Made by a program: the position numbers and the translations under genes. Source: Promethearchaeota archaeon (GTDB lineage: Archaea; Asgardarchaeota; Lokiarchaeia; Sigyniarchaeales; SOKP01). Taken from it: 64,000 nt of DNA. Where the stretch lies: contig JAHLWS010000042.1 in assembly GCA_019057795.1 (NCBI GenBank), positions 1-64,000 of the forward strand. The letters run 5' to 3'. Position 1 is the first letter of the stretch. Each line of letters opens with the position of its first letter. The notes under the pieces are model-generated. The model made no database searches and was not told where the DNA came from. It was given only the letters and a program-made list of their open reading frames with translations. Of the stretch, positions 13,763 through 43,538 are shown piece after piece.

Positions 13763-14950
13763 TTAAGTAAATTTGCGTTCAGAAATTTGTTTAAACAAAT
13801 CTTTAATGGTTGCTTTGAGTTTATTGAATGGTCTTAAATTTCCCGAAAAGGGCGTACCGATGCCATGATATAAAATTGGTTCTATCTGGGCTTCTACATT
13901 TTCGATCTTCCTTAAATTTCCTTCAGATAAGCAAGAAAGAAAATAGTCATTTTGATATTTTCTAAAAGTTAAAAATCGATACTTTTGAAACCCCAATTTA
14001 ACAGCAATCCACCGTGGATACGCGCCAGTGTTTCCTAATGTATTAGCAGCAATTGCCTCGATTTTGGCAGTTAGTAGCGATTCTTTCATTTCCATCTCTT
14101 CCTCTAGATTCTCAAATTCTCCCGGTACTTCTACGTTCAATTGACCTTCTTTATCAAGTAAGAGCGAAATTACACCAATCGACATTGATGACAATCCAAT
14201 GTAATCAATTCTTATCCAATCCTCTAAATATGGAATTTCTTGGTCTGAAAATACATCCTGTAATTGTAAATATTCCTTTAAGATAAAAATAAGATAACCC
14301 TTAAACTTATTATCAATTTCAAATTTTTCTATTTTTGTTAAATTGTTAATATCTTTACCTCGTACTAGTTCTGAATAATACTTCGCCATTTGTTCGAGAA
14401 ACCACTTTCCCTTTTTATCGGGAAAAACTCCATAGATTAAATATATGATATTATTCTTTTCGAAGAATTGGCATTTTACATCTTCGTTATTTTCGGATTT
14501 GAGGAGCATTTTGTCAAGGTCTCCACCTAAAATACTAGTAGCTATGAAATCTAAGTTATTTGATAATTCTAATAAATAATGTAATCTATCATTACTTGCA
14601 AATAAGGGGGTTCTCTCTACCGAGGTTATTCCACAGAATTGTATGTATTCTCCGTCCCCCCCATTTCCTCCCCCTTTTAATATAATCTTTTCGTCGTCTA
14701 AAGAAAATTTAGATGCTACTTGCTTTACTCTGACTTTACCTTTTAATTTTGAGGAAGCTGTTATAGTTTTGGGTCTAAATTGTTGAGGGGAAAGCTTTTT
14801 CGACTCATTATTTTCGGGATCCAAATATTCAAACAAATTTGCTAAGAATTTTCTACATCTGGGGCAAAGTTGGTCTTCTGGATATGGTTTTACAATTGTA
14901 TAACCACAATCTTTGCACTTTAGGGTTTTACTATTGACTCCTCTAAAAAT
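13763..14950 (-). CDS. Zn-ribbon protein with probable tandem longin/roadblock-like domains; probable ATT start at 14950
   Basis: The frame is open 38 codons upstream of the listed TTG and encodes CKDC..CPRC. An in-frame TAA at 14954-14956 bounds it. The downstream secondary-structure pattern resembles longin folds (inference). Confidence 0.6.
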   Translation of the reverse strand: MFRGVNSKTLKCKDCGYTIVKPYPEDQLCPRCRKFLANLFEYLDPENNESKKLSPQQFRPKTITASSKLKGKVRVKQVASKFSLDDEKIILKGGGNGGDGEYIQFCGITSVERTPLFASNDRLHYLLELSNNLDFIATSILGGDLDKMLLKSENNEDVKCQFFEKNNIIYLIYGVFPDKKGKWFLEQMAKYYSELVRGKDINNLTKIEKFEIDNKFKGYLIFILKEYLQLQDVFSDQEIPYLEDWIRIDYIGLSSMSIGVISLLLDKEGQLNVEVPGEFENLEEEMEMKESLLTAKIEAIAANTLGNTGAYPRWIAVKLGFQKYRFLTFRKYQNDYFLSCLSEGNLRKIENVEAQIEPILYHGIGTPFSGNLRPFNKLKATIKDLFKQISERKFT

Positions 14951-15049
14951 GTTTTACCAACTCCGCCAAAAAAATTAGGATAGATAATAAAAACTAATAA
15001 ATAATAATTAATGTTTGGAAATAAAAAAGTTTGTAAATCTTAGTAAAGA

Positions 15050-16141
15050 TTATAAATATTTCTCAGCAACAGTTTTAAATGCTTGTAAGAACTTATTATT
15101 TTCTTCTTTTGTTCCAATAGTTATTCTAAGATAGTTATAAAGGTCCGGCTTACTGAAGTGTCGTACTAAGATTTTGATATCTTTTAAATCCCATAAAAAT
15201 TTTAAAGTAGTTGATTTATCATCAAATTTAATAAAAATAAAATTCGCATCTGAGGGTAGCACGCTGATACCTGCATACTTATTAAGTATTTCTGACAATC
15301 TTTTTCTTTCTGTGATTATATTCTTATTTTGATCGTATACTTTATTTCTATGTTTTATACAAGATAATGCTGCATGTTGTGCGATAGAATTTGTATTAAA
15401 AGGCAATTTAACTCTATTCATTTCTTTAACGATGGAAGCATCAGCTAAAGCGTATCCAATTCTTAAGGAAGCAAGCGAGAAAGCTTTTGAAAAAGATCTG
15501 CAAACGATTAAATTTTTTACATCTTTCAGTAATGGTAAACACGTATATTCTGAGAAATCAGCGTAGGCTTCGTCCACTACGACAATTCCAGGAAAATTGT
15601 GGCAAATTTTAAGAATAGTATCATTATCAAATGACTTCCCGTTAGGATCGTTTGGTGAATTTATAAAGAGTAATTTTCCTTTTTGGTTATAAGCACTTTC
15701 TGGTATAGCAAAATTGTCATCTAATTTAATCTCGGTGATTTTTGCGCCATAAAGATTAGCTAAAACTTTATATAATCCAAAAGTGGGATAAAATATAATA
15801 ACTTCATCTCCAAGATTAACAAATACTTTGAAAATTACATCCAAAATATCGCTGGAACCATTTCCTACAAAAACAGTATTTCTATTAGTTAATGTATCTT
15901 TATTTCTCAATAGTTGATTTAGAACCGCTTTACGAACCTCAAGAGCTAACGAATCGGGGTATTTTCGTAATAAATCTTTATTTTCTATAGCTAATTTTAA
16001 ATCATCTAGTATTTCTTGGATTGGGGGATATGCGTTTTCAGTTGTATTTAATTTTACCCAACCATCTCCTTCCGGTTGTTCTTCTGGTTCATAAGCGCTA
16101 TATTTTCGAAGATTTTCTCTAAATAACTTTTCTAATTCCAT
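15050..16141 (-). CDS. hisC: Histidinol-phosphate aminotransferase
   Basis: KLNTTEN, GNGSSD, NSPNDPNG, VDEAY, RSFSKAFSLASLRIGY (PLP lysine), RITIG. Confidence 0.88.
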   Translation of the reverse strand: MELEKLFRENLRKYSAYEPEEQPEGDGWVKLNTTENAYPPIQEILDDLKLAIENKDLLRKYPDSLALEVRKAVLNQLLRNKDTLTNRNTVFVGNGSSDILDVIFKVFVNLGDEVIIFYPTFGLYKVLANLYGAKITEIKLDDNFAIPESAYNQKGKLLFINSPNDPNGKSFDNDTILKICHNFPGIVVVDEAYADFSEYTCLPLLKDVKNLIVCRSFSKAFSLASLRIGYALADASIVKEMNRVKLPFNTNSIAQHAALSCIKHRNKVYDQNKNIITERKRLSEILNKYAGISVLPSDANFIFIKFDDKSTTLKFLWDLKDIKILVRHFSKPDLYNYLRITIGTKEENNKFLQAFKTVAEKYL

Positions 16142-16372
16142 CTCGATTACCTTTTTTTTAAAATAGACTATTTGGTAGCAATTTCTTAATAATTTAATAT
16201 TTTATATAACTACTTTATAACATTTATTTTTTGTCTTTTAACCTCTCATTCACTGAAATTAAAATAAATCACTATTTAAAAAAGCAAGTCAAAAAACTCA
16301 ATTTTTAAATGTATGAAATCTATTAATTTTATAATATTATTTATAGAAGATAGAGATAAAGTGAATATTAAA

Positions 16373-17227
16373 ATGCAATACGCTATTATGTTTCAAGTTT
16401 TCGAAGGCGGAGTAAGTGAACCTATAAAATGGAATAAAGACAGTCTCACAGCTGAAAACAATATTATCATCTTAGATGAGGGATCTTCCTCTCTTTTTTT
16501 ATGGTATGGGTCAAAACAAGGGTTAGTTTCAAGAAGAACTGCACTTAGACAAGCACAATCACTAAGAGGACATGGATTTACTGTCGGTAAAAGTATAGTC
16601 GGGAGAGATATTAAAGATTTAAAAGAAATTGATCAAAGGAAAATTGGTAGGGTTCTTGAAACCGATGAAATAAATGAGGATCTTCAAACTTTATTAAATA
16701 AAGAGTATAAGGAATTAGATAATTTTGTTATAACCTTTGAATTAAAAGAAATTGTAAAACTCGTTGAAAAAGTAATACCTAAACCTGAACCTAAGATTGT
16801 ACCTAAACCCGAACCAGTAATCGAGCAAGAAACTCCTAAAGTTGTAAAAACAGAAATGAAATTTGCTTCTGAATATGACATTAAGCCAGATCTTGTTTTA
16901 GAAAGTAAACCAACCGAAAAGCCATCAATATCTACTACAAAAGGTTCTACACCAGAACCCAAAGTTGCGTCTAAACCTGCGTTAGATCTTTCCATCCAAG
17001 CTAAAATAGGATTTGTGTTAGTAGGAATTTTAGAACATTATGATGATATTTGGATTTCAATAAAAGAAGATAAGAGATATTCCGTTGAGCACATGGATGG
17101 AAGAGTATGTGAATTCTCAATTGTCGAAGGTAAGATTAAATTTACAGTAGATTCTTTTTCAGGCATCTCTACAAAGATTAAAACTGAAATACAAAAGAAA
17201 TTTGTAGAACTATCAAAACTAATGTAA
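16373..17227 (+). CDS. Single gelsolin-like domain protein with Pro/Lys/Glu-rich linker and C-terminal unknown domain
   Basis: IIILDEGSSSLFLWYGSKQGLVSRRTALRQAQSL matches the gelsolin-repeat pattern (ILD..IFxWxG....R..A...A); linker PKPEPKIVPKPEP. Start uncertain (16313, 16373 or 16388). Confidence 0.65.
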   Translation: MQYAIMFQVFEGGVSEPIKWNKDSLTAENNIIILDEGSSSLFLWYGSKQGLVSRRTALRQAQSLRGHGFTVGKSIVGRDIKDLKEIDQRKIGRVLETDEINEDLQTLLNKEYKELDNFVITFELKEIVKLVEKVIPKPEPKIVPKPEPVIEQETPKVVKTEMKFASEYDIKPDLVLESKPTEKPSISTTKGSTPEPKVASKPALDLSIQAKIGFVLVGILEHYDDIWISIKEDKRYSVEHMDGRVCEFSIVEGKIKFTVDSFSGISTKIKTEIQKKFVELSKLM

Positions 17228-17357
17228 TTCTTTTTTTCCTAATTTTTTATATATTGGAATTTAAATTTTAAGCTTTTTTCTTTATTATTATTAAGAATAA
17301 TAGTTTCGATTCTTAATGTTATAGTTATTATTTTTAAAAAAATAATTTTGTAAAATT

Positions 17358-19115
17358 ATGAAATTCAAAACATTAGCAGTTTTATTTTCTGATTTAGAGG
17401 CCACCCCAAAAAGGCTCGAAATGATCGATATCTTGTCGATGTTTTTTAGAAATATAAAAAAGAATATAGATTTTAAGGATTTAGATAAAATAATCTATTT
17501 GTTGCAAGGTAAATTAGTTTCGAATATAAAACAATTTCCAAAAATCGGTCTTGCAGAAAAAATGATAATTGAGGCGCTTTCTTTACATTCTGGGATCGAA
17601 AAAAATAAAATAAAAGAAGTTCTAATAAAAATTGGAGATATTGGGGCTACTGCCGAATTAGTATTAACAAAAAAGAAAAAGCAAAAATCTCTATTTGATT
17701 TTGAAGATAAACCTAGTGAAATGGAATCTTTATTAGAGATTTCTGAATTATATTCTGCTTTACAAAAAATTGCCTTAAGTGAAGGAGCAGGATCGCAGGA
17801 TGTGAAACTAGGAATTTTAAGAGGTTTAATGAGTAAAAGTTCTCCTTTAGAGACTAAGTATCTATTACGCATAATTACATCAACTCTAAGAGTAGGTGTA
17901 TCAACATTAACTATTATTGATGGGTTAGCTTTAGGGTTTACCGGCGTTAAAAAGAATAGAGAATTTATCGAAAAAGCCTATAATTTGCATCCTGATATGG
18001 GAAATATTACAATAATTTTAGCAGAAAACGGTATAGAAGAAGTAAAAAAGATTAATATTAGTTATGGCATTCCAATTCGAAGTATGCTTGCCTCTCGGGT
18101 TCCTTATGCAGAAATTATTGAAAAAATAGGTTCACCTTTAATAGCAGAATATAAATTAGACGGAGAGAGATTACAAATTCACAAGCAAGGAGATAATGTT
18201 TTGCTCTTTTCACGGCGATTACTTGAGATATCTAAACAGTTTCCAGATGTTTGTCAAATTGTACGTGAAAATGTGAAAGTAAGTAATGTTATTATTGAAG
18301 GTGAAGTTGTTGCTATGGATGCCTTTTACGAAAAAATGCTCCCATTTCAAGTTTTAAGTAAAAGAAGGAGAAAATATGACATCGAAGATGTTTCAAAAGA
18401 AGTTCCTGTCAGCTTATTTTTATTTGATTTGCTAAAAATTGAAGACGAATCCTATATAGAAAAACCATTCCTTGAACGACGAAAAAAATTAGAAGAAATT
18501 GTGAAGGAAAGAGATGAAATACATTTAGTTAAATCCGTTTTAATAAATACAACACAAGAATTATTAGAATTTTTTAATGAAGCACGAAATAATGGAACGG
18601 AAGGAATTATAGCAAAATCTATTAAAGTGGAGTCTGTATATCAAGCAGGGAACCGTGGTTTTCTCTGGATTAAATTAAAGGGATTGGAAGGAGGCAAATT
18701 AAAAGATTCTATAGATGTAGTATTAGTTGGTGCTTTCCATGGCAAGGGTCGAAGAACAGGCGTTTATGGAACATATATAGGCGCTGTATTTGATCCTGTG
18801 GATAATAAATATATTGCTTTTACTCGATTCTTCTCAGGGTTAACTGACGAATTATCAGAATCCTTAACAAAAGATATGGAGCAATATAAGGAAAAAAAAA
18901 AACCTAATAATGTTATTTGTGAAGATATTCCAGAGATTTGGTTTAATCCAGAAGTTGTAGTTGAAATTATTGGTGACGAGATCACTGTTAGCGAGAAGTT
19001 TTCTACTTTAGGATACTCCCTGAGATTCCCTGTTTTCCAGAGATTTCGACCAGATAAAGGTCCAGAGGATATAACTACAGTTGATGAAATTAAAAAGCTT
19101 TATAATTCTCAGTAA
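17358..19115 (+). CDS. lig: ATP-dependent DNA ligase
   Basis: EYKLDGER adenylation motif, EGEVV, FDLL, EGIIAK, WIKLK, SLRFP. Confidence 0.96.
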   Translation: MKFKTLAVLFSDLEATPKRLEMIDILSMFFRNIKKNIDFKDLDKIIYLLQGKLVSNIKQFPKIGLAEKMIIEALSLHSGIEKNKIKEVLIKIGDIGATAELVLTKKKKQKSLFDFEDKPSEMESLLEISELYSALQKIALSEGAGSQDVKLGILRGLMSKSSPLETKYLLRIITSTLRVGVSTLTIIDGLALGFTGVKKNREFIEKAYNLHPDMGNITIILAENGIEEVKKINISYGIPIRSMLASRVPYAEIIEKIGSPLIAEYKLDGERLQIHKQGDNVLLFSRRLLEISKQFPDVCQIVRENVKVSNVIIEGEVVAMDAFYEKMLPFQVLSKRRRKYDIEDVSKEVPVSLFLFDLLKIEDESYIEKPFLERRKKLEEIVKERDEIHLVKSVLINTTQELLEFFNEARNNGTEGIIAKSIKVESVYQAGNRGFLWIKLKGLEGGKLKDSIDVVLVGAFHGKGRRTGVYGTYIGAVFDPVDNKYIAFTRFFSGLTDELSESLTKDMEQYKEKKKPNNVICEDIPEIWFNPEVVVEIIGDEITVSEKFSTLGYSLRFPVFQRFRPDKGPEDITTVDEIKKLYNSQ

Positions 19116-19132
19116 AGAAAAAAATTTATTTT

Positions 19133-20515
19133 TTAAATATAAACCTGAAGCCCCTTTTCTTCTAATTTTTTCAAAAAAGAGGGGTAAATTTTAAGGTTAT
19201 TTTCTGTTAAATATAATTCTTCTAAAAAATCAAGAGAATTAAGGGTATCTGGAAGTTTAGTTAATTTATTCCTAGACAAGTTTAAAATTTTTAAATTTTT
19301 TAAATTTCCAATTGTACTTGGAATCGTTTCTAATTGATTATCGCCTAAATTTAATATTTCTAAGGAATTAAGTGAGCCTATTGACAATGGAACGTTTACT
19401 AACTCGTTTCTTTCAAGATCTAAAGATTTTAGAGATGATAGATTATTTAATGAGGAAGGAATGCTAGTCAATAAATTCCAACTCAAATTCAAGGTTATTA
19501 ATGATTTTAGGGATAAAATAGAATCCGGAATTTTTGTTAGTTTATTGTCGTGAAGATTTAAATCTTTTAGGTTAATTAAATTTCCAAAATAGTTAGGTAA
19601 TAGTGTAAGCTGGTTTAGCCTTAAATTTAATTGTTCTAATGAGATTAAGGAACAGATTGAGTTTGGAAGATTTTGGAGTTCATTCTTCCAAAGTAATAAT
19701 TCTTTAAGCTTTGAAAGCAAACCAATATTCTCAGGAAGATTATTTAAATTATTTACATTTAAATTAAGGTATTCTAACGAAATTAAAGTACTAATCCACC
19801 CTGGAAGTTCTGTTATTTGATTATATCTTAAAGTCAATTTTTTGAGAGAAGTAAGGTATTTAATAGCAATAGGTAATTTTGTTAAACCTTTAAATATAAA
19901 ATCTAACTCCACGATTTTACAACGGTTAATAGTATATTTCAATCTCCAATAAGTCTTTTTCAAGTAAATCAATGTGAAATAATTAATTAAAATGTCAGCT
20001 AATTCCATACGAGTAAATAATTTCGAGCCCTTGGCAAAGCTTAAAGTCTCAAAGCCAATTTTAAAATCTTTATCATCGATTTGTTTTATCTCGTGAATCA
20101 AGATTAGTTTTATAATGGGTTCGTTTCTTTTTTCTAAGTTGTTAATTATAGCTATTAATGAATCAAAAATTGTATACAAACAAGTTTGAGATTCTTCGTG
20201 ATGAAGAGCCCATCTTAGTGGGTTCAAAGCTTTATCTTTAAAATTATACCGTAAAATAAGAGTGGCTTCGTTTCTGATTTTTTCATCTGAGTCCGAAATA
20301 AGTAAATTTTCAAAGAAACTAAAAAGCTCCTCCTTTTTTACGCCAGTATTTTCAAAATTATCCCCAATACTTCTTAAAATTTGAAGGCTCTCGTAGCGGT
20401 CTTTAACTTTTGTACTATTTTCTATTAATGTGATTAGTTGCTTAACTGCTGACGATACATCTATTATTTTTTTATTAAATTCGTCAAAAATCTTAGTCGG
20501 TGTGCGTCTCGTAAT
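19133..20515 (-). CDS. HEAT-like repeat + LRR protein; probable ATT start at 20515
   Basis: The frame is open 96 codons upstream of the listed TTG and encodes the N-terminus shared with the paralogs (KQLITLIENS..FENLLISDSDEKIRNEA); bounded by TGA at 20525-20527. About 11 LRRs of the LxLxxNxLxxLP type. Confidence 0.8.
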   Translation of the reverse strand: MTRRTPTKIFDEFNKKIIDVSSAVKQLITLIENSTKVKDRYESLQILRSIGDNFENTGVKKEELFSFFENLLISDSDEKIRNEATLILRYNFKDKALNPLRWALHHEESQTCLYTIFDSLIAIINNLEKRNEPIIKLILIHEIKQIDDKDFKIGFETLSFAKGSKLFTRMELADILINYFTLIYLKKTYWRLKYTINRCKIVELDFIFKGLTKLPIAIKYLTSLKKLTLRYNQITELPGWISTLISLEYLNLNVNNLNNLPENIGLLSKLKELLLWKNELQNLPNSICSLISLEQLNLRLNQLTLLPNYFGNLINLKDLNLHDNKLTKIPDSILSLKSLITLNLSWNLLTSIPSSLNNLSSLKSLDLERNELVNVPLSIGSLNSLEILNLGDNQLETIPSTIGNLKNLKILNLSRNKLTKLPDTLNSLDFLEELYLTENNLKIYPSFLKKLEEKGLQVYI

Positions 20516-20528
20516 GTAAATCCCTCAA

Positions 20529-22028
20529 CTATTTATAAATTATTAAGCCATTTTTTTCTAATTTACCCAAAAAATCGGGTGTTTCTTCAATATTATTAAA
20601 GTTTAAATCTATAATTTTCAATGATTTAAGATTCTCAAGAGATTCGGGAAGTTTTTTCAATTTATTCCCCCATAAACTCAATGTCTCAAGAGATTTAAGA
20701 TAACCCACACAATCGGGTAAAATTTCAAAACGATTCCAACTTAAATTTAAATCTTTTAAATTAATTAACGAGCTAAACGACTTAGGTAAAGAAGTTAAAT
20801 TATTATTCCATAGAGTTAATTCTTTAAGCGTAGAAATTTTACCAATTGATTCAGGAAGTTCAATTAACTTATTATCAAATAATTGTAATATTTCTAATGA
20901 TTGCAACGACCCAAGCCAAGAAGGAAGTGATGTCAATTTATTTCCTCCCAAACCCAATTTTTTAAGAAATTTAAGAGGTTTTACCCATTTAGGAAGTCTT
21001 TCTATATTGTTCAATCCCAAATCTAATTTCTTAAGAGAAGTCATTCGCTTGAAAGAACCCTTTAATTTGCTTAGATTGTTTCCGTGCAAATCTAAGACTT
21101 CTAAGGTTGCTATATTCTTTATTGTTTTTGGTAAAGAAGTTAATTCATTAGCTCTTAAATCTAGATGTTTCAACGATTTTAAAGAGCCAATAGAAAGTGG
21201 TAAACTTTTTAGTTTATTATATCTCAAATTTAACACATTTAAGGCCGTTAATAAACCAATAGAATGAGGAATTGATTTAATTTTATTATAACTCAAATCT
21301 AAGTGAATCATTGAAGATAAAAAGCTAATAGTTTTAGGTATCATAGTAAGTCTATTAAACTTTAAATCTAGAATTTCTAATGATGTTAAAAATTCCATAA
21401 AATCAGGAAATTTGTTCAAAATTGTCCATCCAAAAACATGACTACTAACATCGGATAAATCTAATTCAAAAATTAGACCCTCTCTTACCTTAAAATTAAT
21501 TTGACCAAATCTTTTTTCCAGATCGGCCACAATAAAATAATTCTCGATAATTTGTGAAAGTTCAAAACTCGAGAAACTTTCAATATCTCTTTTTTTGAAT
21601 AAGAGATTTAAATTTTCAATTATTTTCTCGTTTCTTATTTTTTTTATTTTATTAATTAACAAGGATTTTGATTGAGGAGTATCAATTTTTCCTAATATAT
21701 TTGAGATTGCTAACAAACATTTTAAGGATTCTTCATGTTTAAAAGACCATACCATCGGCTCAAAGGCAATATCTAAAAATAATTTATCTATGACATTAGC
21801 AGCGGCATATCTTATACCCTCTTGGGAATCTGAAATAAGTAAATTTTCTAATAGTTTGAAAACATCCTTAGATTTAGCATCAATCTGAGATAGCGTATTA
21901 ATGCTTTCGATTCTTTTATTTAGATTATCGCTATTATCTATAATCGATATTAATTGATTTATTACTGAAAATTTATCTAATTTTTTGCTCTTATAATTTT
22001 TTTTAATTAATTTTTGAGATAATTCCAT
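20529..22028 (-). CDS. HEAT-like repeat + LRR protein
   Basis: LENLLISDSQEGIRYAAA, followed by about 12 regular 23-aa LRRs. Confidence 0.88.
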   Translation of the reverse strand: MELSQKLIKKNYKSKKLDKFSVINQLISIIDNSDNLNKRIESINTLSQIDAKSKDVFKLLENLLISDSQEGIRYAAANVIDKLFLDIAFEPMVWSFKHEESLKCLLAISNILGKIDTPQSKSLLINKIKKIRNEKIIENLNLLFKKRDIESFSSFELSQIIENYFIVADLEKRFGQINFKVREGLIFELDLSDVSSHVFGWTILNKFPDFMEFLTSLEILDLKFNRLTMIPKTISFLSSMIHLDLSYNKIKSIPHSIGLLTALNVLNLRYNKLKSLPLSIGSLKSLKHLDLRANELTSLPKTIKNIATLEVLDLHGNNLSKLKGSFKRMTSLKKLDLGLNNIERLPKWVKPLKFLKKLGLGGNKLTSLPSWLGSLQSLEILQLFDNKLIELPESIGKISTLKELTLWNNNLTSLPKSFSSLINLKDLNLSWNRFEILPDCVGYLKSLETLSLWGNKLKKLPESLENLKSLKIIDLNFNNIEETPDFLGKLEKNGLIIYK

Positions 22029-22292
22029 TAATCTTCCAAATTTGGTTTAGTTTTTTAAATTTTTTGTGTTGTATTAAAGTAGTTAACTTTTCATAATGAT
22101 TTTTATTTTTCTTTTAATGATGATCTTGAAACATCGACAGTAATATAATTATTAGAATTTTTTTAAGAGAATTATAAGTTGAGATTAGTTTTAATTACTT
22201 TTCATTTAAAAAAATTCACAGATGCTTCTCACTGTGTTCCTCGAAATTTCTTTAAAAATTAAACCAGATTAACTTTGTATAAAATTTTGATT

Positions 22293-23570: not shown

Positions 23571-23595
23571 AACCTCACATTTTGTATTAAATCTA

Positions 23596-25505: not shown

Positions 25506-27410
25506 CTAAAAATATTTCTCTAAAGCCAGCGCTTTAATTTTACTTATTGTGGGGTAACTATTTTGTTTATCCCAACCTCGTTCGTCGTAATAATCGTCCA
25601 ATAATTGATTGGCAATGTCTTGAGTAATAACTACTTCTCCGTAAAAGTCTTGGAATTTAAGCACATTTTCCCCAATATTTAAGGGTTTAAACCATCCTTT
25701 AGGAAATTTATCGTCCTTTCGAGAAAAACCTTCCTTTAAATTCATTAACTTCAATAAATTCCAAGAACGTTCAGCTGATAGTCTCAATTCTTCTTGATGC
25801 AAATTAAATCCAGTAATTAAATTGTATATTTGGGTAACTAATTCTAAACTATAAAATCTATTCATTTGAGCTCTAGCACACAATCCTAGAGATGTTAGAA
25901 CAGTGTACCAATCTTCAGAGTATCTGGTTAGTCGTCCAACATTTACGCCCATTTCTTTTTTGGGTGGAGTAAATATTCTAGAGAAAGCAGTATCGGGGAT
26001 ACCCATCCGATTAAAATGGCTTTTCATTTTATCTGGAGTTCCACCAGCGCCAACATATGTCGGTGATCCGCCTGAAGCAACATGAGCGCCTTTAGGATTT
26101 ACTACTTGTTCGAATTCCATTGTTCCTAATCGTAAAAACCTAGGTTCGAATATAACATCTAATCCTTTCACCGTAAGCATTTCGTTTGAAAAAGTTTTAT
26201 CTTCCCCAGCTAATTTTTTCCATCCATCTGCTAATATATCTCCAAACCCTTCCCTTTTAGTGATTATGTCGATAAGGTGCTGAAAAGTCTTAAAATCCTG
26301 CTTCCACTCGAAACCTAGTTTTTCATTAGTGAGAAGATCTCGTTCATTCATTTTACTTATAAATTCAAATAGTGCGGTCATAGTTAATGAATCCAATCCA
26401 TATCTACTTATTAGATCAAACGCTTTTATTGCTTGGTCGTATGTGTCTAACCCATCTACGGTAAACATCATTAAGGGGTTAATTATTGAGGAGGTGTAAT
26501 TAATCAAACCGCTAAATTCTCCTTCACGTATTTCAAGGATATCTTTATCAGCCATAGGACAAGATGGACAAGCAATACGTCTTTTTTTCATTTTTTTTAA
26601 GTACATCCTATCGCTACATTGGCGAGCTTTTTTCTTTTGACCTTTTGCGGTTAAGAACATGCCAACTGGCAAACTTCTTAACATACCCAGTTCAATCCAC
26701 GAATCTCTATGAGGATATTTGCGAATGCGTTCAATAAAACTTTTATACAATTTATTAAACTTTTTTGGTTCTGCTATTGGAATCCCTTTTGTCCCTTGAG
26801 TCAAAATAGCTTTAAGGTTTTTCGACCCCATAATTGCTCCAAGTCCACCACGTCCTAAAGTCGAGGTTTTATCTATTAGCGTCATCGAAGATTTAACAAG
26901 ATTTTCTCCCGCTTGTCCAATAGCAATTACTCCACTTGAACCATGTTTCCTCTTTAAAAAATTAGTTGTTTCAACGATATCTTTACCCCATATTACTTTA
27001 GCTTTACATAATTCAACATGATCGTCAGATATGAGTAAATATACGGGTTTTTCTGATTTTCCAGTTATAATTATATGATCAAATCCCGCTTGCTTTAAGT
27101 TAAACGCAAAACTCATACTCCCGCAAGAATTAGCAACGGCTTCGGTCGCCGGAAATTTTGAAATTGCAACGGTTCGAGAAGAACCAGGTACAATAGTTCC
27201 TACTAAGGGGCCAGTTCCAAATATTATTAAATTTTTTGATGAAAATGGATCCGTTAACGGTTTGAATCGATCAGCAAAAAGTTTACAATTCATCCCGAAT
27301 CCACCAATGAACTTTTTAAGGTCTCTGACATCTTCTTTAACAACTGACACTCTATTTTCCGTTAAATCAATGTCAAGTATATTTCCAGTGTAACCAAACC
27401 AATCCGTTAT
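25506..27410 (-). CDS. aor: Aldehyde:ferredoxin oxidoreductase family (W/Mo-pterin) protein; probable ATA start at 27410
   Basis: The upstream in-frame segment encodes the canonical AOR N-terminus (WFGYTGNILDIDLT); GRGGLGAIMGSKNLKA, CPSCP, GLC, YYDERGWD. Confidence 0.88.
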   Translation of the reverse strand: MTDWFGYTGNILDIDLTENRVSVVKEDVRDLKKFIGGFGMNCKLFADRFKPLTDPFSSKNLIIFGTGPLVGTIVPGSSRTVAISKFPATEAVANSCGSMSFAFNLKQAGFDHIIITGKSEKPVYLLISDDHVELCKAKVIWGKDIVETTNFLKRKHGSSGVIAIGQAGENLVKSSMTLIDKTSTLGRGGLGAIMGSKNLKAILTQGTKGIPIAEPKKFNKLYKSFIERIRKYPHRDSWIELGMLRSLPVGMFLTAKGQKKKARQCSDRMYLKKMKKRRIACPSCPMADKDILEIREGEFSGLINYTSSIINPLMMFTVDGLDTYDQAIKAFDLISRYGLDSLTMTALFEFISKMNERDLLTNEKLGFEWKQDFKTFQHLIDIITKREGFGDILADGWKKLAGEDKTFSNEMLTVKGLDVIFEPRFLRLGTMEFEQVVNPKGAHVASGGSPTYVGAGGTPDKMKSHFNRMGIPDTAFSRIFTPPKKEMGVNVGRLTRYSEDWYTVLTSLGLCARAQMNRFYSLELVTQIYNLITGFNLHQEELRLSAERSWNLLKLMNLKEGFSRKDDKFPKGWFKPLNIGENVLKFQDFYGEVVITQDIANQLLDDYYDERGWDKQNSYPTISKIKALALEKYF

Positions 27411-27652
27411 TTCTCACCCTCCTTGAGTTCTAAAGCTCCATACAGACAATAATTTGCGCATTGCCCGCAGTGAGTACATCCATCTAAGAACGAGATTTTT
27501 GGGATTAATTCGTAGACATCAACAATTTGAATAAAGGCTTCAGTAGGGGAATATTTATTCTTATATATGGAAGAACAGATTAATTGACAGATTCTACATC
27601 CTGTGCATCTTTCCTCGTGTATAATTATCTCAATTAATTTAGATTTTGCCAA
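27407..27652 (-). CDS. 4Fe-4S dicluster ferredoxin-like partner of AOR
   Basis: CTGCRICQLIC and CTHCGQCANYC; its stop codon overlaps the AOR start. Confidence 0.85.
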   Translation of the reverse strand: MAKSKLIEIIIHEERCTGCRICQLICSSIYKNKYSPTEAFIQIVDVYELIPKISFLDGCTHCGQCANYCLYGALELKEGEK

Positions 27653-30603: not shown

Positions 30604-30617
30604 TTAAAAGAAAAGCG

Positions 30618-32156: not shown

Positions 32157-32157
32157 T

Positions 32158-32631: not shown

Positions 32632-32644
32632 TTTTTACACCTCT

Positions 32645-34609
32645 CTATATCTCTTCTAAAATAGCATCGATTTGTTTTTCATATTGAGGTTCACGGTAGT
32701 ATCTTAGCGTAATCGCCTCAGAAGGACAATTGGCTAAGCACGAACCGCATCCACGGCATAATATCTCGTTTACTTCTGCTCCGTCAGCTAAAGTCTTAAT
32801 CGCATCGTAAGGACAATTTAATTCACACAGTCCACATTTCGCACATCTATCTTTATCTACAGTAGCTCGAATTAATAAAATCCTATATTTATCCTTCCAC
32901 ATCAATCGTGCTAAAGAAGATGCTGCTGCTCTCCCTTGAGCTATTGATTCAGCTATAGATTTAGGGCTTTGAGAAGCTCCTGCAAGTACGATACCCGGAA
33001 TTTTTGTGTCAATTGGATTTAAACGAGAGTGAAATTCCTTGAAGAATCCATCTCGGCTCGTTTCAAGCTTTAAGATTCTTCCAATTTTCCCTACTCCCTT
33101 TGCGGGTACCATAGCGCACGATAGAACAACCATATCGTACTCAAGTTCTTTTAATCTTGTGCTACTAAGTGTGTTTTGGATAATTATTTTAAGATTTTGA
33201 GTTTCTGGGTCTTCTTGAATTTTTGAGACATTAGTTCTAATGTATCTTATACCTTCTTTTCGTGATGCGGTGTAATACTCTTCATAATCTTTTCCAGCGG
33301 CTCGAATATCTATGTAGGCAACAGAGATTTCCATTTCAGGATAATGTTGTTTTATAAGTTTAGTATTTTTAATTGAAATCATACAACATACTCCGGCACT
33401 GCAATAAGTATTCATGTTCAAATCTCTCGATCCGACACATTGAATAAATAGTATTTTTTCAGGTTTTTTTCCGTCAGAAGGGCGAACTAGATGTCCAACG
33501 GTTGGTCCGTTAGGTGCAAGCATCCTTTCTAACTTCATTTGGGTTATTACATTTGGATAAACGTTGTAACCTAAATAACCCGTTTCTGGTTCGTACTCGT
33601 CCCATCCTGTAGCTACTATTATTGAGCCAACTTCAACATCTACAATTTCATCTTCTTGATCAAAATCAATTGCTTTAAATTCACAAACACCTTTGCATAA
33701 TTCACATTTAATGCATCTCGTCATATCAATTTGGGCTATCGAGGGTACTGCTTGAGCAAAGGAAACGTAAATTGCTTTTCTCGGGTTCATTCCTTCGTTA
33801 AATTCGTCGTATCCGTAAGCGGGACACACTTCAAAGCAAGCACCGCAACCATTGCAGTCGTTATTAACATACCTTGCCCTTTTTCGGATTTTAACATTGA
33901 AGTTTCCAACAAATCCAGAAACATCTTCCACTTCACTATAAGTATATACATTTAACCCTGGAGTTCTTGATGCTTCGAGCATAACAGGGCCAAGGATTCA
34001 TATACTGCAATCGTCAGTGGGAAATGTTCGATCTAACATAGCCATTTTTCCACCTGTTGTCGGATTTTTCTCAACCAAATGGACTTCAAAACCCTCTTCA
34101 GCCAAATCTATTCCTGCTGATAATCCTGCTACGCCACCGCCAATAATTAAGGCTTTCTTAGTGATATCTACCTCTTTGACTAAGATTTTTTCTAAAACAC
34201 TAGCCCTAGCAACACCAGACCGAATAACATCCTCAGCGGTTCTTTGTGCCCCTGGTTTATCTTGTCTGTGGACATAACTCGCGTGTTCTCGTATGTTCAC
34301 GAATTCCAAGTAAGAAGGGTCCAAACCCATAGATTCTAGTACGCTTTTAAAAACCGGTTCGTGAGTTTTGGGGGTGCAAGATGCCATAACTAACCTATTA
34401 GCGTTGTTCTCGAGCATTTTTTCTTTAATGAACTCAGCCCCAGGTTGTGTACACATTGATATATAATCTAAAGCTTCAACTACATTTGGAAGCGTTTTTG
34501 AATATTCTGATAGAGCTTTTGTATCAATTATTTCGGCAATATTAATACCTCATTGGCATACTGCCACGAAGATTCTTGGTTCATCATTTGTAATTTTAGT
34601 TTCTACCAT
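32645..34609 (-). CDS. hdrA: Heterodisulfide reductase subunit A, selenoprotein with 2 Sec (UGA at 34550-34552 and 33998-34000)
   Basis: One continuous frame of 654 aa: RIFVAVCQ-U-GINIA (consensus CxCGxNI), ASCTP, IGGGVAG, TFPTDDCSI-U-ILGP (consensus DCSxCI), ferredoxin motifs, QCVGSRD. Confidence 0.93.
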
Positions 34610-35262: not shown

Positions 35263-35272
35263 TAATTTATTT

Positions 35273-36489: not shown

Positions 36490-36834
36490 TTAAATTTGGT
36501 TAATTATTTCTCTCAAAATCTGTTCATTGAAAGATCCAATTGTAACTCCTTTATTTACGATTAATTCCCCATACACTCTAATGTTTTTATTTAAGAGCTT
36601 GCAATCCTTAAAAAATATTAAAGCGGGTACTACATTGATATTCAATTCTCGAGCTAACTTAGAATTGTCACCAATATCAATTTCTTTTAACTTTATAAAA
36701 CCTTCATCTCTAATTTGTTGTAATGTTGTAGAGAGTAATTTACAAGACCTACACCATTTAGTACATAAAACAATTATAAATATACCTTCATCAGGACCAT
36801 CAATTCCAAATTTTTTTAACTCTTCTATATCCAA
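36490..36834 (-). CDS. Thioredoxin family protein
   Basis: WCRSC active-site motif; VVPALIFFKD cis-Pro motif. Confidence 0.8.
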   Translation of the reverse strand: MDIEELKKFGIDGPDEGIFIIVLCTKWCRSCKLLSTTLQQIRDEGFIKLKEIDIGDNSKLARELNINVVPALIFFKDCKLLNKNIRVYGELIVNKGVTIGSFNEQILREIINQI

Positions 36835-36855
36835 ATAATGTTATCTCTTTTTTTT

Positions 36856-38217: not shown

Positions 38218-38365
38218 TTAAATTAACGCTAGAGTTATTTAAAAAAACGATCATTTACAAATATTTTTTTCGATTTTATTCGATTAAAACACTCTATTTT
38301 TGATTTTTCTAATTAGGAAGTTTTGAGAAGAAAATCTATTAAAATAATTGAGCTTAAAATTAATT

Positions 38366-38743
38366 ATGTCAGGTATTGAAATTATTAATCCTGGAACCCC
38401 TGTTGCAGGACCTTATAGCCCGGGCATAAAGGTAGGTAATTTACTATTTGTTTCTGGTCAAGGATCGGCTCAGCCGGCAACTGATATTAAAGAACAGACT
38501 TTAGCTGCGCTAACTAATATTAAAAAAATCGTAGAAGCTGCTGGAGGTAAAATTTCGAACATTGTCAACACAACCGTATTTTTAAAGAATATTAAAGAAT
38601 TTAACGAAATGAACAGCGTTTATAAAAGGTTTTTTAATGACAACGGAGTTTCTGAATTTTATCCTGCGAGAGCAACAGTGGAAGTATCAAATTTACCTCT
38701 TGCTAGTATGTTAATAGAAATAAGTGCGATTGTAGCGCTATAA
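38366..38743 (+). CDS. ridA: RidA/YjgF family reactive intermediate deaminase
   Basis: GPYS, LFVSGQ, F..MN.VY, PARATVEV..LP, IEI. Confidence 0.9.
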   Translation: MSGIEIINPGTPVAGPYSPGIKVGNLLFVSGQGSAQPATDIKEQTLAALTNIKKIVEAAGGKISNIVNTTVFLKNIKEFNEMNSVYKRFFNDNGVSEFYPARATVEVSNLPLASMLIEISAIVAL

Positions 38744-38885
38744 ATTAATTAATTATCTTTTTTTTCCTTTTAAATATTATTTCAAATTTTAGGTCATGTC
38801 ACAGCTAATTCCTTATTAACAAAGTCTAAAAAGTAATTTTCATGTATTATCAATTAATTATTAAAGTTGATAGGTTGAAAATAGA

Positions 38886-40070
38886 TTGATATTATCCACT
38901 AGTTATGAGGAATTAAAGGATTTGGTCAAAGATAAAAAATTTCCTATGGTAATTTGTGATCTCGATGCTTTCAATCAGAATTTAGAAAGGGTTGGGAATT
39001 ATTTAAGGAGAGTGAAAAAAAGTTTAAGATTATGCACTAAATCAGTTAGAGTTCCTGAATTGGTAAGTAAAGTTGAAAAGGAAGACTTTGTTAACGGGAT
39101 ATTTACTTATAATTCAGCTGAAGCTTTGTTTTACGCTGAAAATTATAAAATTAAAGATATTTTGTTGGGTTATCCTACGATGTCTAAGGTGGATGTTGAT
39201 GAATTATGCAAAGCAGCTAGCATAGACGGTGTAAGCATTACAGTTATGGTTGACGATGTAAAACATATAAATTTGTTAGAAGAATTAGCAGTTAAAAATA
39301 ATATTGAATTTGATACATTGATCGAAATAGATGTTGCAGACAAATTATTTGGAAGAAATGTTGGCGTTTATAGAAGTCCAATAAGGGACCCCGAAGCAGC
39401 AGTGAAACTAGCACAAATAATAAGTAAAGCAAATAACTTGCATTTTAGGGGAATTATGGGTTACGAAGCTCAAAATGCTAGTATAGGCGATGATAAAGCA
39501 TTATTTAGATTTGCAAAAAAAAGATCTAGGAAACACGTAAATATTTGGCGTCAAAACTTTGTAGACGCCCTTACAAAGGCCGGGTTTCAACCTGAAGTTG
39601 TTAACGGTGGAGGATCTGGGTGTTTTCAAGAAACTGCTGCTGAACCCTCTATAACAGAAATTGGTATAGGGTCTTTGCTTTTTAAATCGCATATTTTCGA
39701 TACAATTAATTCTTTGAACGAGTTTTTACCATCTCTTTTTTTCGTTATTCAAATTGTTAGAAAACCAAAAGAAAATATTGCAACTGCTTTTTCAGGAGGA
39801 TATGTAAGTTCTGGAAGCGTAAGAGCATTACCCATCCCTGTTCTCCCAAAGAAAATAATAACATCTAAAGACGAAGAGTTCGGAGAAGTGCAAACGCCCT
39901 TTACTTTTAACCCGAAACAATTAGATTTAGATCTTGGAGACCCGATATTTTGTAGATTTGGTAAAGCAGGGGAGCCTTTAGGGCATTTTAATCAAGTTTA
40001 TATTTATAAGAATGGTGAAATAATTGACACTTATAAAACCTATAGAGGTTATGGCAAAAGATTTTCTTGA
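38886..40070 (+). CDS. Fold-type III PLP enzyme (alanine racemase-like; DSD1/D-threonine aldolase family)
   Basis: LRLCTKSVR (PLP lysine), GIMGYEAQ, NGGGSG, EIGIGS, GEVQTP, TYRG. Confidence 0.8.
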   Translation: MILSTSYEELKDLVKDKKFPMVICDLDAFNQNLERVGNYLRRVKKSLRLCTKSVRVPELVSKVEKEDFVNGIFTYNSAEALFYAENYKIKDILLGYPTMSKVDVDELCKAASIDGVSITVMVDDVKHINLLEELAVKNNIEFDTLIEIDVADKLFGRNVGVYRSPIRDPEAAVKLAQIISKANNLHFRGIMGYEAQNASIGDDKALFRFAKKRSRKHVNIWRQNFVDALTKAGFQPEVVNGGGSGCFQETAAEPSITEIGIGSLLFKSHIFDTINSLNEFLPSLFFVIQIVRKPKENIATAFSGGYVSSGSVRALPIPVLPKKIITSKDEEFGEVQTPFTFNPKQLDLDLGDPIFCRFGKAGEPLGHFNQVYIYKNGEIIDTYKTYRGYGKRFS

Positions 40071-40117
40071 GAAATCTTAAAGATTTAAGAAAAAAAAGAA
40101 AAAAAATTGAAATTGAC

Positions 40118-41953
40118 TTAATATAAATCCTTAATAACAAAATCTAAATTGAGATCTGTTAATGTTTCTTTGAGAGGATAACCCGTTTCAGGATTCCAAC
40201 CCATCTTTTCACAATATCCTTTGTAATCCTCTAAATAATCTACAGTTACTGTTCTTTCAGGTAATTTATTCTTAATGATATCTATTCCTTCTCGTAGCGT
40301 GAATGCTTGTCTCAAAGTTTGAATTCTTTGACCTGTTTTAATCGCTTCGTCGATGTCTAATTCCCATCCAACAACAGCTTTAACTAATTCTAATAGAGGA
40401 TATTTCTGAAAAATATATGCAAATTCACATAGTCCAAGACTATTAGTATATTGCATTATCGCAGTAAAAAGCTTTTCAGCTTCACTTCTATCATCGCCAG
40501 GACGCTTAAATTTTCTTGGTAATGTTAATCCTTCGAATAATCCATTTGGTTTAACTATCGGCCCCATTACAAAAAAATCCAAACTTGCTGTAGTATGTCT
40601 ACCTGGCGTTGGATCGTAAGCGAAAGTAGTACCCATGTTTTTATAATATTTTGGTGAATGCATACCTAATTCTTGGCCTAAGGAGTGCATAGCGTATTCC
40701 GATCCTCTCCCTAATTTTTCTGCTGCTATTTTAGAACCATCTGCCAGTAAATCACCAATTCCTTCCCTATTTATCATTTTATTTAGTAGCGTAATTATAG
40801 ATTCTGAATTTCCCTAAGTCAATTCGAGTCCATCTGTATCATCCTTAGAAATTAAATTGTTTTCGTAACATTCGATTGCAAATGCAATCGTCGCCCCAGC
40901 AGAAATTGTATCTATTCCAGCTCGATTACATATGTCGTTAGCTTTAAAAATTGACATGAGATCGTCGTTAAGCAATAAGTGCCCAAAACTGGAACAAGTC
41001 TCATATTCAGGACGATGAGTCTCTTCTAAATCTACTTCCGGAACTTTCATTATCGCACCACACTGCACTGGGCATGAGAAGCATCCGTAGGGTTTTTCTT
41101 TATATTTATCTATTTCATTACCAGAAATTTTAGTCAATTTATCATCTGGAAAATCTTCTTTAGTACCTCCCCAATTTTTGCAAGGAGTATCCCCTATTTT
41201 AAATAAAATTTCATTTCCCATTGTAGTTCCTAATGTTTTATACCCTAAAATTCCAGCTGCTGTAGAAGTATTAATTCCATTATTATAATCTTTTGTATGT
41301 TGAATAAGAGCATCTTTATCGGAGACAGTAATTTTTTTTCCTCCCTTAAGAACAATTGCTTTAAGTTTTTTGGAACCCATAACAGCTCCAAATCCAGATC
41401 TCCCTGCAACCCTAGCTTTATCATTAACAATTCCAGATATTAAACTTAAATTTTCTCCTGCCTGACCAATACTAGCAATTTGAACGCTTCCATGCTTTTC
41501 TTTTAGTTTATCTTCGGTTTGCACAACATCTAAACCCCATAAATCTGAAGCATCTAAAATTTGCTTATCATCTTCCAAAATTGTTATGTATTTTGGACTG
41601 TTAGCCATACCTTTAATTAAAATTGCATCATACCCACATTTCTTAATTTCTGGACCAAAATAACCTCCACAATTTGAGTCGCCCCAAGTTTTTGTTAGCG
41701 GTGATTTACCCGCAACCATGAAGCGTCCTGTTAAAGGCGCTACTGTTCCAGTTAATAGTCCAGGAAAAAATCCAAATACAGATTCTGGACTGAGAGCATC
41801 TGTTTTTGGAGGTACATTTTCATAAATGAGTTTGGCTGCCAACCCAATACCGCCTAAATATTGTCGATATAACTCTTCTTGTACATCTTCTTCCTTAAAA
41901 GTCCCATCAGTAAGATTTACCCATAATACTTTTCCCATATAACCATTTGGCAT
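40118..41953 (-). pseudogene. aor: Aldehyde:ferredoxin oxidoreductase family gene interrupted by an in-frame TAG (40814-40816)
   Basis: The two listed ORFs share one frame: ...DGLELT*GNSES..MINREGIGDLLADG. The stop falls at the Trp of the usual L-x-W-G-[ND] motif (TGG>TAG). Confidence 0.75.
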
Positions 41954-42069
41954 TCTTATTAACTCTTTTTAAAAATTTGTAATAAATTCATATACAATTA
42001 TTAAATATAATAAATGCTAAGAAAGTTTAAAAACATTATAAAACAGAATTTGAAAATTTTTAATCTGAG

Positions 42070-42354
42070 ATGTCTGATTTAAAAAAGAAATTCATTATTA
42101 TGCATTTGGATGATAATTGCGCTACGGCTTTAATAGATATTTCTAAAGACACTGAATTAAGAACAAACGAAATTTTCATAAGAATAAATCAAAATATTCC
42201 GATGGGGCATAAATTCTCACTGAAAGATATTAATAAAGGAGAATTAATAAAAAAATACGGTCAAATTATTGGTATAACTACTCAAGATATAAAAACGGGT
42301 GATTGGATTCACACACACAATCTAAAAAGTTACTATTTGGAGGTGGCTAAATAA
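42070..42354 (+). CDS. UxaA/GarD-family dehydratase small subunit (SAF domain)
   Basis: DNCATAL, IPMGHKFS, IKKYGQIIG, GDWIHTHN. Confidence 0.88.
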   Translation: MSDLKKKFIIMHLDDNCATALIDISKDTELRTNEIFIRINQNIPMGHKFSLKDINKGELIKKYGQIIGITTQDIKTGDWIHTHNLKSYYLEVAK

Positions 42355-43538
42355 TAACCGAAGAATTCTTTGGTTACCAAAGACCTAAAGGAAAAGTAGG
42401 CATTCGTAACAAAGTAGCTGTTATATCTTCAGTAGTATGCGTTAATCACGTCACACAACAAATTGCGAAACAAATTGAAAATGCGGTAGCTATAACGCAC
42501 CCTCTAGGTTGTGGTCAATTTGGTCCAGACTTTAATTATACAGTTCGAACTTTATCTGGTTTAGGAATAAACCCAAATATTTATGGGGTTATTGTGGTTG
42601 GTTTAGGTTGTGAGAATATCACCAGTAAATTATTGGCAAGAAAAATTAAACAATCAAAAAAACCAGTGGAATTCTTTGATGTCCAAGACATTCAAGGAGG
42701 AACAACCGCAGCAATAGAAAAAGGCATCAAAATTGGAAAAAACATGTCAGAAGCTGCAAAAGAATTAAAACGAGAACCGTTCGACTTCTTTCACTTAGTA
42801 TTAGGTTTAGAATGTGGGAGTTCTGACTCAATTTCTGGAATATCTGCAAATCCTTCTTTGGGAATGATTTCAGATAAGGTCGTAAAATTAGGAGGCACAT
42901 CTATTCTTCCTGAATTTACAGAATGGATAGGTACAGAACATTTGTTAATTGAAAGAGCAGTAAATAAAGATGTAGCTGAAAAAATCCATTCCACTTTAAA
43001 TCGATTTCTAGAAGGAACTAGAAGACTCGGAATAGATTTCCGAGGAATTCAACCAACACCTGGAAATATAAAGGGTGGATTAACTACAATTGAGGAAAAA
43101 TCATTAGGTACTATCGCCAAAGCAGGAAAGGCACCTATCCAAGGATTATTAGAATATTCGGAGGGGGTAAAAGGAAGGGGTTTGTGGTTAATGATTGAAC
43201 CTGGATTAGATATAGAATCAATGACGGGGCTTGCTGCTGCGGGAGCACAGGTAATTATTATGACAACAGGTCGAGGAAGTCCATGTGGGAATCCAGTTGC
43301 CCCTGTAATTAAAGTTTGTGGGAATAAACGAAGTTGTGAATGGATGGCAGGAAATATCGATATTGACGCGAGTAAGATTTTTACGGAAAATAAAAATGTT
43401 GAGAATATTGCTCAAGTACTATGGACTAAACTAAAATCAACTTGTAACGGGGAAAGAACTTTCGCTGAAATTCTAGGTTTTGAAGATTTGGCAATTTTGA
43501 GAGCAAATACAATCCTTTCAACAATGTATCAGCTATAG
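42354..43538 (+). CDS. uxaA: UxaA/GarD-family (altronate/galactarate/sulfolactate-type) dehydratase large subunit; probable ATA start
   Basis: The in-frame upstream segment encodes FFGYQRPKGKVGIRN..SSVVC..HPLGCGQ; also GLGCE, ECGSSD, GNIKGGLTTIEEKSLG, TTGRG. In-frame TAA at 42348-42350. Confidence 0.85.
   Translation: MTEEFFGYQRPKGKVGIRNKVAVISSVVCVNHVTQQIAKQIENAVAITHPLGCGQFGPDFNYTVRTLSGLGINPNIYGVIVVGLGCENITSKLLARKIKQSKKPVEFFDVQDIQGGTTAAIEKGIKIGKNMSEAAKELKREPFDFFHLVLGLECGSSDSISGISANPSLGMISDKVVKLGGTSILPEFTEWIGTEHLLIERAVNKDVAEKIHSTLNRFLEGTRRLGIDFRGIQPTPGNIKGGLTTIEEKSLGTIAKAGKAPIQGLLEYSEGVKGRGLWLMIEPGLDIESMTGLAAAGAQVIIMTTGRGSPCGNPVAPVIKVCGNKRSCEWMAGNIDIDASKIFTENKNVENIAQVLWTKLKSTCNGERTFAEILGFEDLAILRANTILSTMYQL

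Follow-up and report, generated by a model that had tools for sequence, protein, structure and literature searches.

A 64,000-nucleotide stretch of DNA from the Lokiarchaeia (Promethearchaeota archaeon, GenBank assembly GCA_019057795.1, contig JAHLWS010000042.1, positions 1 to 64,000; hereafter the window) contains four genes with conserved N-termini that cannot be reached from any in-frame ATG, GTG or TTG, as seen in stop-to-stop translations and Pfam profile coordinates. These genes encode a uxaA-type altronate/galactarate dehydratase large subunit, an aldehyde:ferredoxin oxidoreductase (aor), a HEAT-LRR protein, and a zinc ribbon (Zn-ribbon) protein. The assembly (G000, in which the window is contig C42) comprises 4.95 Mb in 87 contigs with 31% G+C, and the 3′ end of its 16S rRNA is GGATCACCTCCT, from which a Shine-Dalgarno (SD) consensus of AGGAGGTGA follows. 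All four genes have an ATA or ATT codon 0–3 codons after an in-frame stop, and the gap between this codon and the SD match is 4–7 nucleotides (nt), as at ATG genes. The four start-less genes had been described in an earlier note on this DNA, with coordinates and motifs that prove exact to the base. The observations below strongly suggest that they are intact genes translated from AUA or AUU codons, and that such starts are a habit of the lineage.

The uxaA-type gene occupies positions 42354..43538 of the forward strand. Its frame begins after a TAA at 42348-42350 and opens with two successive ATA codons, at 42351-42353 and 42354-42356, of which the latter is the proposed start. The first canonical codon is a GTG at 42594, 80 codons past 42354. 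The SD sequence GGAGGTG (42339..42345, forward strand), which can pair with the 16S 3′ end, is found 8 nt before ATA 42354, a gap within the distribution found for ATG genes. Directly upstream is a SAF-domain small subunit (Pfam SAF; 42070..42354, forward strand), and its TAA stop codon at 42352-42354 overlaps the ATA start. The Pfam families GD_AH_second and GD_AH_C together span residues 8–385 of the stop-to-stop frame, with profile position 1 of GD_AH_second at residue 8. All of the elements that the earlier note had listed here (both ATA codons after the in-frame TAA, the GGAGGTG and the 80 codons before the first GTG) are found exactly.

Among 48 informative uxaA loci, the codon aligned to 42354 is ATG in 36, TTG in three, GTG in one and ATA in eight; four further loci outside these 48 diverge upstream or begin elsewhere. 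The ATA loci comprise five sister metagenome-assembled genomes (MAGs) from different studies (ABR02, Loki_b31, CSMAG_2412, CSMAG_2743 and CSMAG_2258) and the loci L024, L025 and L041. L024 lacks a canonical alternative, in L025 the next codon is ATG, and in L041 (genome G010) a TTG follows five codons on. Genome G012 has ACG at this codon and an ATG five codons on. The spread of ATA among these loci points to two or three origins. In relatives, the SAF and uxaA open reading frames (ORFs) overlap at the same place as ATGA. The ratio of nonsynonymous to synonymous substitution rates (dN/dS, Nei-Gojobori) is 0.11–0.15 in the uxaA leader compared to 0.12–0.18 in the gene body. Orthologues that begin with ATG encode 393–395 amino acids, while the public protein cluster for the ATA clade (94% identical, 64 member sequences) has 380 amino acids, begins with MGIRN, and is called from an internal GTG. 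The systematic 5′ truncation by gene callers that had been anticipated for such genes is visible here.

The aor gene lies on the reverse strand at 25506..27410, with ATA 27410-27408 as its proposed start. Read from 5′ to 3′, the SD sequence AGGAGG (27423-27418; feature 27418..27423, reverse strand) is followed by a G, a TGA (27416-27414), GAA and the ATA, which places the SD sequence 7 nt before the ATA; it is kept in all close aor orthologues. The TAA stop codon (27409-27407) of a small 2×[4Fe-4S] ferredoxin ORF (27407..27652, reverse strand; Pfam Fer4 families) overlaps the ATA as ATAA. The first GTG is 20 codons in, and position 1 of the AFOR_N profile falls at residue 10 of the frame. The ATA, the ATAA overlap and the in-frame TGA two codons upstream agree with the earlier description, and the SD match is given here as AGGAGG. 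The aligned codon is ATA in seven species (G000, G052, G038, G040, G005, G009 and G032), ATG in G014, G046 and G002, and TTG, ATG or GTG in more distant orthologues, and the orthologous ORFs are all 635–636 amino acids long. The downstream GTG is an ATT in G009. Since the uxaA codon of G005 is ATG while its aor codon is ATA, the changes in the two genes are independent.

At the junctions of both genes with their small upstream partners, a programmed frameshift or a fused SAF-UxaA or ferredoxin-AOR protein was also considered. These readings fail because two ORFs are visible at the junctions in most orthologues; no continuous polypeptide across the junction was found in homologues, and the upstream frames displayed there stop within or just after the start codon of the large subunit, in an ATGA-type overlap.

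The window also contains a second AOR paralogue (40118-41968, reverse strand), in which an in-frame TAG at 40816-40814 separates parts of 384 and 231 codons and AFOR_C runs on across the TAG. No PylS or PylD scored above the cut-off in G000, and pyrrolysine was rejected at this codon, which is more likely a nonsense mutation or a site of readthrough.

The HEAT-LRR gene (19133..20515, reverse strand; LRR families in Pfam) has the 5′ order TGA (20527-20525), GGG, ATT (20521), TAC, ATT (20515). The proposed start is ATT 20515-20513, with ATT 20521-20519 as the alternative. An SD-like GAGGG (20522..20526, reverse strand) lies 6 nt before ATT 20515, and GAGGG or GAGGT is found in orthologues. The first TTG comes 96 codons past 20515, as the earlier note had stated along with the ATT and the GAGGG. 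ATT 20515 is kept in 19/19 close orthologues with aligning N-termini. In G012 the codon of 20521 is ATG, and distant orthologues have an ATG start (one a TTG) just upstream of the aligned part. The first canonical codon of the orthologues is found at 90–115 codons, and its place is not conserved. The leader has a dN/dS of 0.18–0.27 compared to 0.21–0.26 for the body. The gene starts 13 nt past the stop codon of an upstream paralogue, one of three HEAT-LRR paralogues at 12735-22046 of the reverse strand (12735-13730, 19133-20524 and 20529-22046) with which the Zn-ribbon gene is interleaved. Sister genomes share the gene order Zn-ribbon, HEAT-LRR, aor, as on contig C41 of G009.

The Zn-ribbon protein (CxxC...CxxC; 13763..14950, reverse strand) belongs to no Pfam family, and its proposed start is ATT 14950-14948. 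Upstream are the imperfect SD sequence GGAGTTGG (14964-14957; feature 14957..14964, reverse strand), a TAA (14956-14954) and AAC. This SD sequence has 6/8 matches to GGAGGTGA and is conserved across the genus. Both CxxC pairs lie inside a 38-codon start-less leader, ahead of the first TTG, just as had been reported, and about 100 nt of intergenic DNA precede the gene. In 16/22 of the orthologues read, an ATT, ATC or ATA is found 0–3 codons into the frame behind GGAGTTGG or GAGTTGA, with no ATG, GTG or TTG before the first CxxC. In the other 6/22, either the upstream stretch displayed contains an ATG, GTG or TTG, or the frame stays open further upstream.

Taken together, complementarity to the anti-SD sequence and ATG-like spacing are found at all four sites, with an imperfect SD at the Zn-ribbon gene. 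The earlier note had proposed that these starts are supported by SD sequences or by translational coupling. The SD part holds for all four genes, while coupling would fit uxaA, aor and HEAT-LRR only. In these three, orthologues have a canonical start at the homologous codon; Zn-ribbon orthologues mostly have ATH (ATT, ATA or ATC), genus-wide. The ATA codons of uxaA and aor are kept in 6–7 independently assembled species, with ATG at the aligned codon of most relatives, and the two long leaders, with dN/dS of 0.11–0.27, point to selection on both codon and frame. The opposite outcome that the note had named, in which relatives all have ATG and these genes decay, was looked for and is not what the related genomes contain: several independently assembled species carry ATA or ATT in full-length ORFs, and dN/dS is low.

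The same pattern can be recognized genome-wide. A hexamer coding model was trained on the long ORFs of G000 itself and used to find ORFs of at least 120 codons that are coding-like for at least 15 codons without ATG, GTG or TTG, beginning no more than 12 codons from the upstream stop. Among 4,095 ORFs, 215 such candidates were found. At the 5′ boundary, 58/215 (27%) have an SD core of 5 nt or more, compared to 4/171 controls in which the coding signal begins at a canonical codon (Fisher p = 2e-12). The commonest in-frame codons at an SD spacing of 3–10 are ATT (20) and ATA (17). ATH is in frame in 33/58, while the two alternative frames have it in 12 and 2. Boundary-anchored and SD-anchored tests took the place of a codon-by-codon analysis of SD enrichment over all leader positions, which was too diluted (background SD-like 5-mers 3.7%) and gave a mild excess of ATH, CTG and ACG only.

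The SD-anchored census counts SD matches of at least 6 nt that lead directly into a coding ORF of 100 codons or more, of which G000 has 171. At 129 of these sites the ORF opens with a canonical codon (ATG 91, TTG 27, GTG 11). Another 24 sites, with no canonical codon within 8 codons, have a near-cognate codon (ATT 10, ATA 9, ATC 2, CTG 2, ACG 1). Fifteen sites are ambiguous, with a canonical codon no more than 8 codons downstream, and three have neither kind. Near-cognate codons are thus found at 24/27 of the unambiguous non-canonical sites, compared to 27% by chance (p = 2e-11). With SD matches of at least 5 nt, there are 313 canonical sites, 55 near-cognate sites and 25 with neither (p = 7e-15). 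The modal SD spacing is 6 nt for ATT and ATA and 6–7 nt for ATG. Near-cognate starts account for ~14–15% of the genes that open behind an SD match in G000, and the genome probably contains several tens to about two hundred genes of this kind.

In 10 of 20 sampled candidates with both an SD sequence and a near-cognate codon, a Pfam domain lies within the start-less leader; the other 10 have no domain there and are uninformative. The domains include DAO from residue 7, a PFL-like domain from residue 13, the IF-2B family from residue 17, JAB from residue 14, two alpha/beta-hydrolases, an amidohydrolase in which the first 66 profile positions must fall in the leader, and a TPR repeat with only six residues inside it. 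In transcription factor B (TFB; G000:C78:31659-32624, reverse strand), the zinc ribbon at residues 23–62 is part of the start-less leader, and the ATT follows an AGGTG. In a Ras-family GTPase (G000:C27:13084-13662, reverse strand), the domain begins at residue 9 and the P-loop is reachable only from an ACG behind AGGTG.

Near-cognate starts are not confined to G000. The SD-anchored test, with SD matches of at least 5 nt, was applied to 400-kb samples of three other genomes, so that the numbers are small. Near-cognate and canonical sites number 7 and 18 in G087, from the same family as G000 and another genus, 3 and 31 in G026, from another family of the same order, and 2 and 25 in G024, also from another family of the order. 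The habit is therefore present across the order, in G000 and in all three further genomes. It is possibly more frequent in f1, the family of G000 (15–28%), than in f2 (7–9%), although this is only a tendency. The suggestion of the earlier note that the lineage routinely initiates at AUH codons is supported by these counts: near-cognate starts are a property of the lineage and not of the four genes in the window.

Two components of the initiation machinery of G000 bear on how such codons could be read. ARAGORN reported 14 tRNAs in G000, or 29 with introns allowed, with no tRNA-Met among them; since it misses most of the intron-bearing tRNAs of this genome, the initiator tRNA was sought by motif instead. 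The only locus that matches the archaeal initiator anticodon stem-loop motif GGGCTCATAACCC is on contig C70 and has the normal CAT (CAU) anticodon, and this motif search of G000 found no initiator-like stem with another anticodon. The initiator is thus an ordinary CAU tRNA rather than a dedicated one. Its gene, around position 174350 of C70 (forward strand), has an intron-like insertion in the T-arm region.

The second component is aIF1 (SUI1; G000:C70:199623-199979, reverse strand), which itself lacks an ATG, GTG or TTG before its Zn knuckle and has an ATT 9 nt after AAAGGTTGTGA. The gene is preceded by a non-coding stretch of at least about 100 nt. This layout, in which ATT or ATC follows a conserved AAAGGTTGTGA, is found again in 37/40 of the family genomes read, which represent seven genera; the other three have a GTG. 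In three other families of the class the homologous codon is ATA, and in the two further genera read it is TTG. A conserved suboptimal start on the factor's own gene is what autoregulation of the infC and eIF1 type would require, and this parallel with bacterial infC and eukaryotic eIF1 suggests that the weak aIF1 start could provide feedback on aIF1 synthesis. The autoregulation of infC has been discussed (PMC4705826), and that of eIF1 has been attributed to a poor start context, at least in the account given by a later paper (Ivanov et al. 2010, as cited in PMC6237735).

The reading we favor, at a probability of roughly 85%, is that uxaA and aor are translated from AUA, and HEAT-LRR and the Zn-ribbon gene from AUU, by SD-directed near-cognate initiation. 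The anatomy of the sites, their conservation, the purifying selection, the genome-wide enrichment and the normal initiator tRNA are matters of observation; initiation at these codons, insertion of Met and an efficiency below that of AUG are inferred from them. An SD/anti-SD duplex a few nucleotides upstream would position the small ribosomal subunit at the AUA or AUU, and the ordinary initiator Met-tRNA (CAU) would pair with the codon despite a third-position mismatch, which is the simplest reading given the ordinary CAT anticodon. The proteins should therefore begin with Met. For uxaA and aor, a single G-to-A change could have converted an ATGA start/stop overlap to ATAA. Such a change keeps the upstream stop codon (TGA to TAA) and thus fits the strong A+T pressure of a genome with 31% G+C.

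Several observations weigh against this reading or limit its details. ATT and ATA are common codons in G000 (5.1% and 3.4%, respectively), so that ~27% of ORF starts would be expected to have an ATH nearby by chance. Only orthologue alignment and spacing decide between 42354 and 42351, and between 20515 and 20521. An SD sequence is missing from many of the 215 coding-leader candidates, which may be broken genes or noise of the model. In the G026 sample there were 12/317 raw candidates, only one with an SD sequence, and the raw rates of ~5% in G000 and 3.8% in G026 do not separate the two genomes, so that the SD-supported subset alone is informative. The aor and Zn-ribbon leaders contain too few substitutions for a meaningful dN/dS, and the SD sequence of the Zn-ribbon gene is imperfect.

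Termination-reinitiation, in which ribosomes that finish an upstream ORF restart with little dependence on the start codon, could make ATA and ATT tolerable in coupled genes only. The layout of uxaA and aor, which overlap the upstream stop as ATAA, and of HEAT-LRR, 13 nt past the stop of its paralogue, is what this would predict, and coupling may indeed help there. However, the Zn-ribbon and aIF1 genes are separated from upstream coding sequence by about 100 nt or more, many of the genome-wide cases come after A/T-rich intergenic DNA, and the codon at SD spacing is specifically ATT or ATA rather than any codon. Coupling alone is thus an unlikely explanation, and for the three genes concerned it is a variant of near-cognate initiation, not a replacement for it. 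Alternatively, the proteins might begin at the first downstream GTG or TTG and be N-terminally shorter than their homologues. Such codons exist, and public gene calls use them, but these starts would remove 60% of GD_AH_second, the first AFOR_N strand, 96 conserved HEAT codons and the whole Zn ribbon. Moreover, the leaders are under purifying selection at dN/dS values like those of the gene bodies, the place of the canonical codon is not conserved in aor and HEAT-LRR orthologues, and SD sequences stand in front of the ATH codons and not in front of the downstream ones, all of which makes downstream starts very unlikely.

A change at the level of RNA or tRNA would also be compatible with the DNA: AUA and AUU might be edited to AUG, or the initiator tRNA might read AUA by means of a modified C34, like f5C in mitochondria or agmatidine in tRNA-Ile2. 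Archaea do have TiaS, which modifies C34 of tRNA-Ile2. We know of no precedent for start-codon editing in archaea, however, the only initiator tRNA gene found is ordinary, and the use of AUU, AUC, CUG and ACG besides AUA means that a single tRNA modification would be no explanation; we regard this class of explanations as highly improbable. As for errors of sequencing or assembly, or genes that recently lost their start codon and began to decay, G000 is a MAG with an estimated contamination of 7.5%, and ATG to ATA is a one-step mutation that A+T pressure favors. Against this, the same ATA or ATT is found in 6–7 species-level genomes from different studies and assemblers, the ORFs are full length in all sister species with dN/dS of 0.1–0.3, which is not the signature of pseudogenes, and the essential single-copy genes for aIF1 and TFB have the same pattern. 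Error or decay is therefore extremely unlikely.

Only AUG, GUG and UUG are treated as starts in archaea, and initiation at AUU or AUA is known from a few bacterial genes, from mitochondria and, weakly, from eukaryotes. The classical cases are E. coli infC (IF3) and pcnB, with SD-directed AUU/AUA starts. The genes described here resemble these in having an AUH codon behind an SD sequence and a normal initiator tRNA, and the likeness extends to the start-codon proofreader, whose own gene has a weak codon (infC in bacteria, aIF1 here). The differences are that bacteria have a handful of such genes per genome, compared to ~14–15% of SD-led genes here, and that G000 is an archaeon with eukaryotic-type initiation factors (aIF1/aIF1A/aIF2). 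With eukaryotes it shares near-cognate codons at a sizeable minority of sites and a homologous factor (eIF1/aIF1, SUI1 domain) whose suboptimal own start would give negative feedback. However, eukaryotic initiation relies on scanning and Kozak context, and eIF1 itself starts at an AUG whose context is poor, whereas here the SD sequence would position the ribosome and the codon is AUU or AUA. SD-led initiation with the aIF1/aIF2 machinery is shared with canonical archaeal initiation. Sulfolobus aIF1 is reported to discriminate against non-canonical codons (PMC6237735), and in ribosome profiling of Haloferax ~30% of the putative alternative initiation sites were near-cognate and were set aside (PMC7261190). 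A full-text literature search revealed no report of conserved full-length genes with AUH as their principal start, either in Asgard archaea or in archaea at large. What appears to be new is therefore lineage-wide, SD-directed AUH initiation in an Asgard archaeon, initiation at AUU and AUA being known already.

NCBI translation table 11 allows ATT, ATC, ATA and CTG as alternative initiators, while common gene finders consider only ATG, GTG and TTG, so that proteins with near-cognate starts are cut short. The ATA of the uxaA clade is formally allowed in table 11, and the public call is nonetheless shortened. If near-cognate initiation is as widespread as it appears, N-termini that carry, for instance, zinc ribbons, P-loops or FAD-binding folds would be systematically lost or shortened in Asgard gene catalogues. 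For the closest known prokaryotic relatives of eukaryotes, this would distort domain inventories, structure predictions and orthology, and gene callers for these lineages should admit ATT, ATA and ATC (and CTG and ACG) behind SD sequences. In addition, an archaeon with eukaryote-type factors would accept AUU and AUA far more often than is known from bacteria, in the aIF1 gene among others, and the evolution of start-codon fidelity control (IF3, aIF1, eIF1) would become directly testable. More speculatively, start-codon stringency in Loki-type Asgard archaea may be low and tunable, with the tens to hundreds of AUH genes (aIF1, TFB, small GTPases and metabolic enzymes) forming a “weak-start regulon” that tracks the aIF1 level through feedback. 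This idea is tentative and on balance doubtful; if true, eIF1-controlled near-cognate initiation in eukaryotes would have a prokaryotic counterpart in this regulon, which might even be its forerunner.

Further candidates are found in the window. The fifth is the N-terminal part of a very probable HdrA-like selenoprotein (33998..34549, reverse strand), which has 31 codons without a canonical start and two ATT codons, 34546 and 34540, behind GAGGT. The complete HdrA-like FAD/4Fe-4S protein (32645-34549, reverse strand) consists of two ORFs in the same frame with a TGA at 34000-33998 between them, in the motif TFPTDDCSI[TGA]ILGP. This TGA is very probably a selenocysteine codon, because HdrA homologues typically have Cys at this place. 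Finally, a short ORF near the beginning of the window (133-540, forward strand) encodes a Cas12f1-like TNB domain, a remnant of a TnpB/Fanzor-type nuclease, and also has a 23-codon leader without a canonical start.

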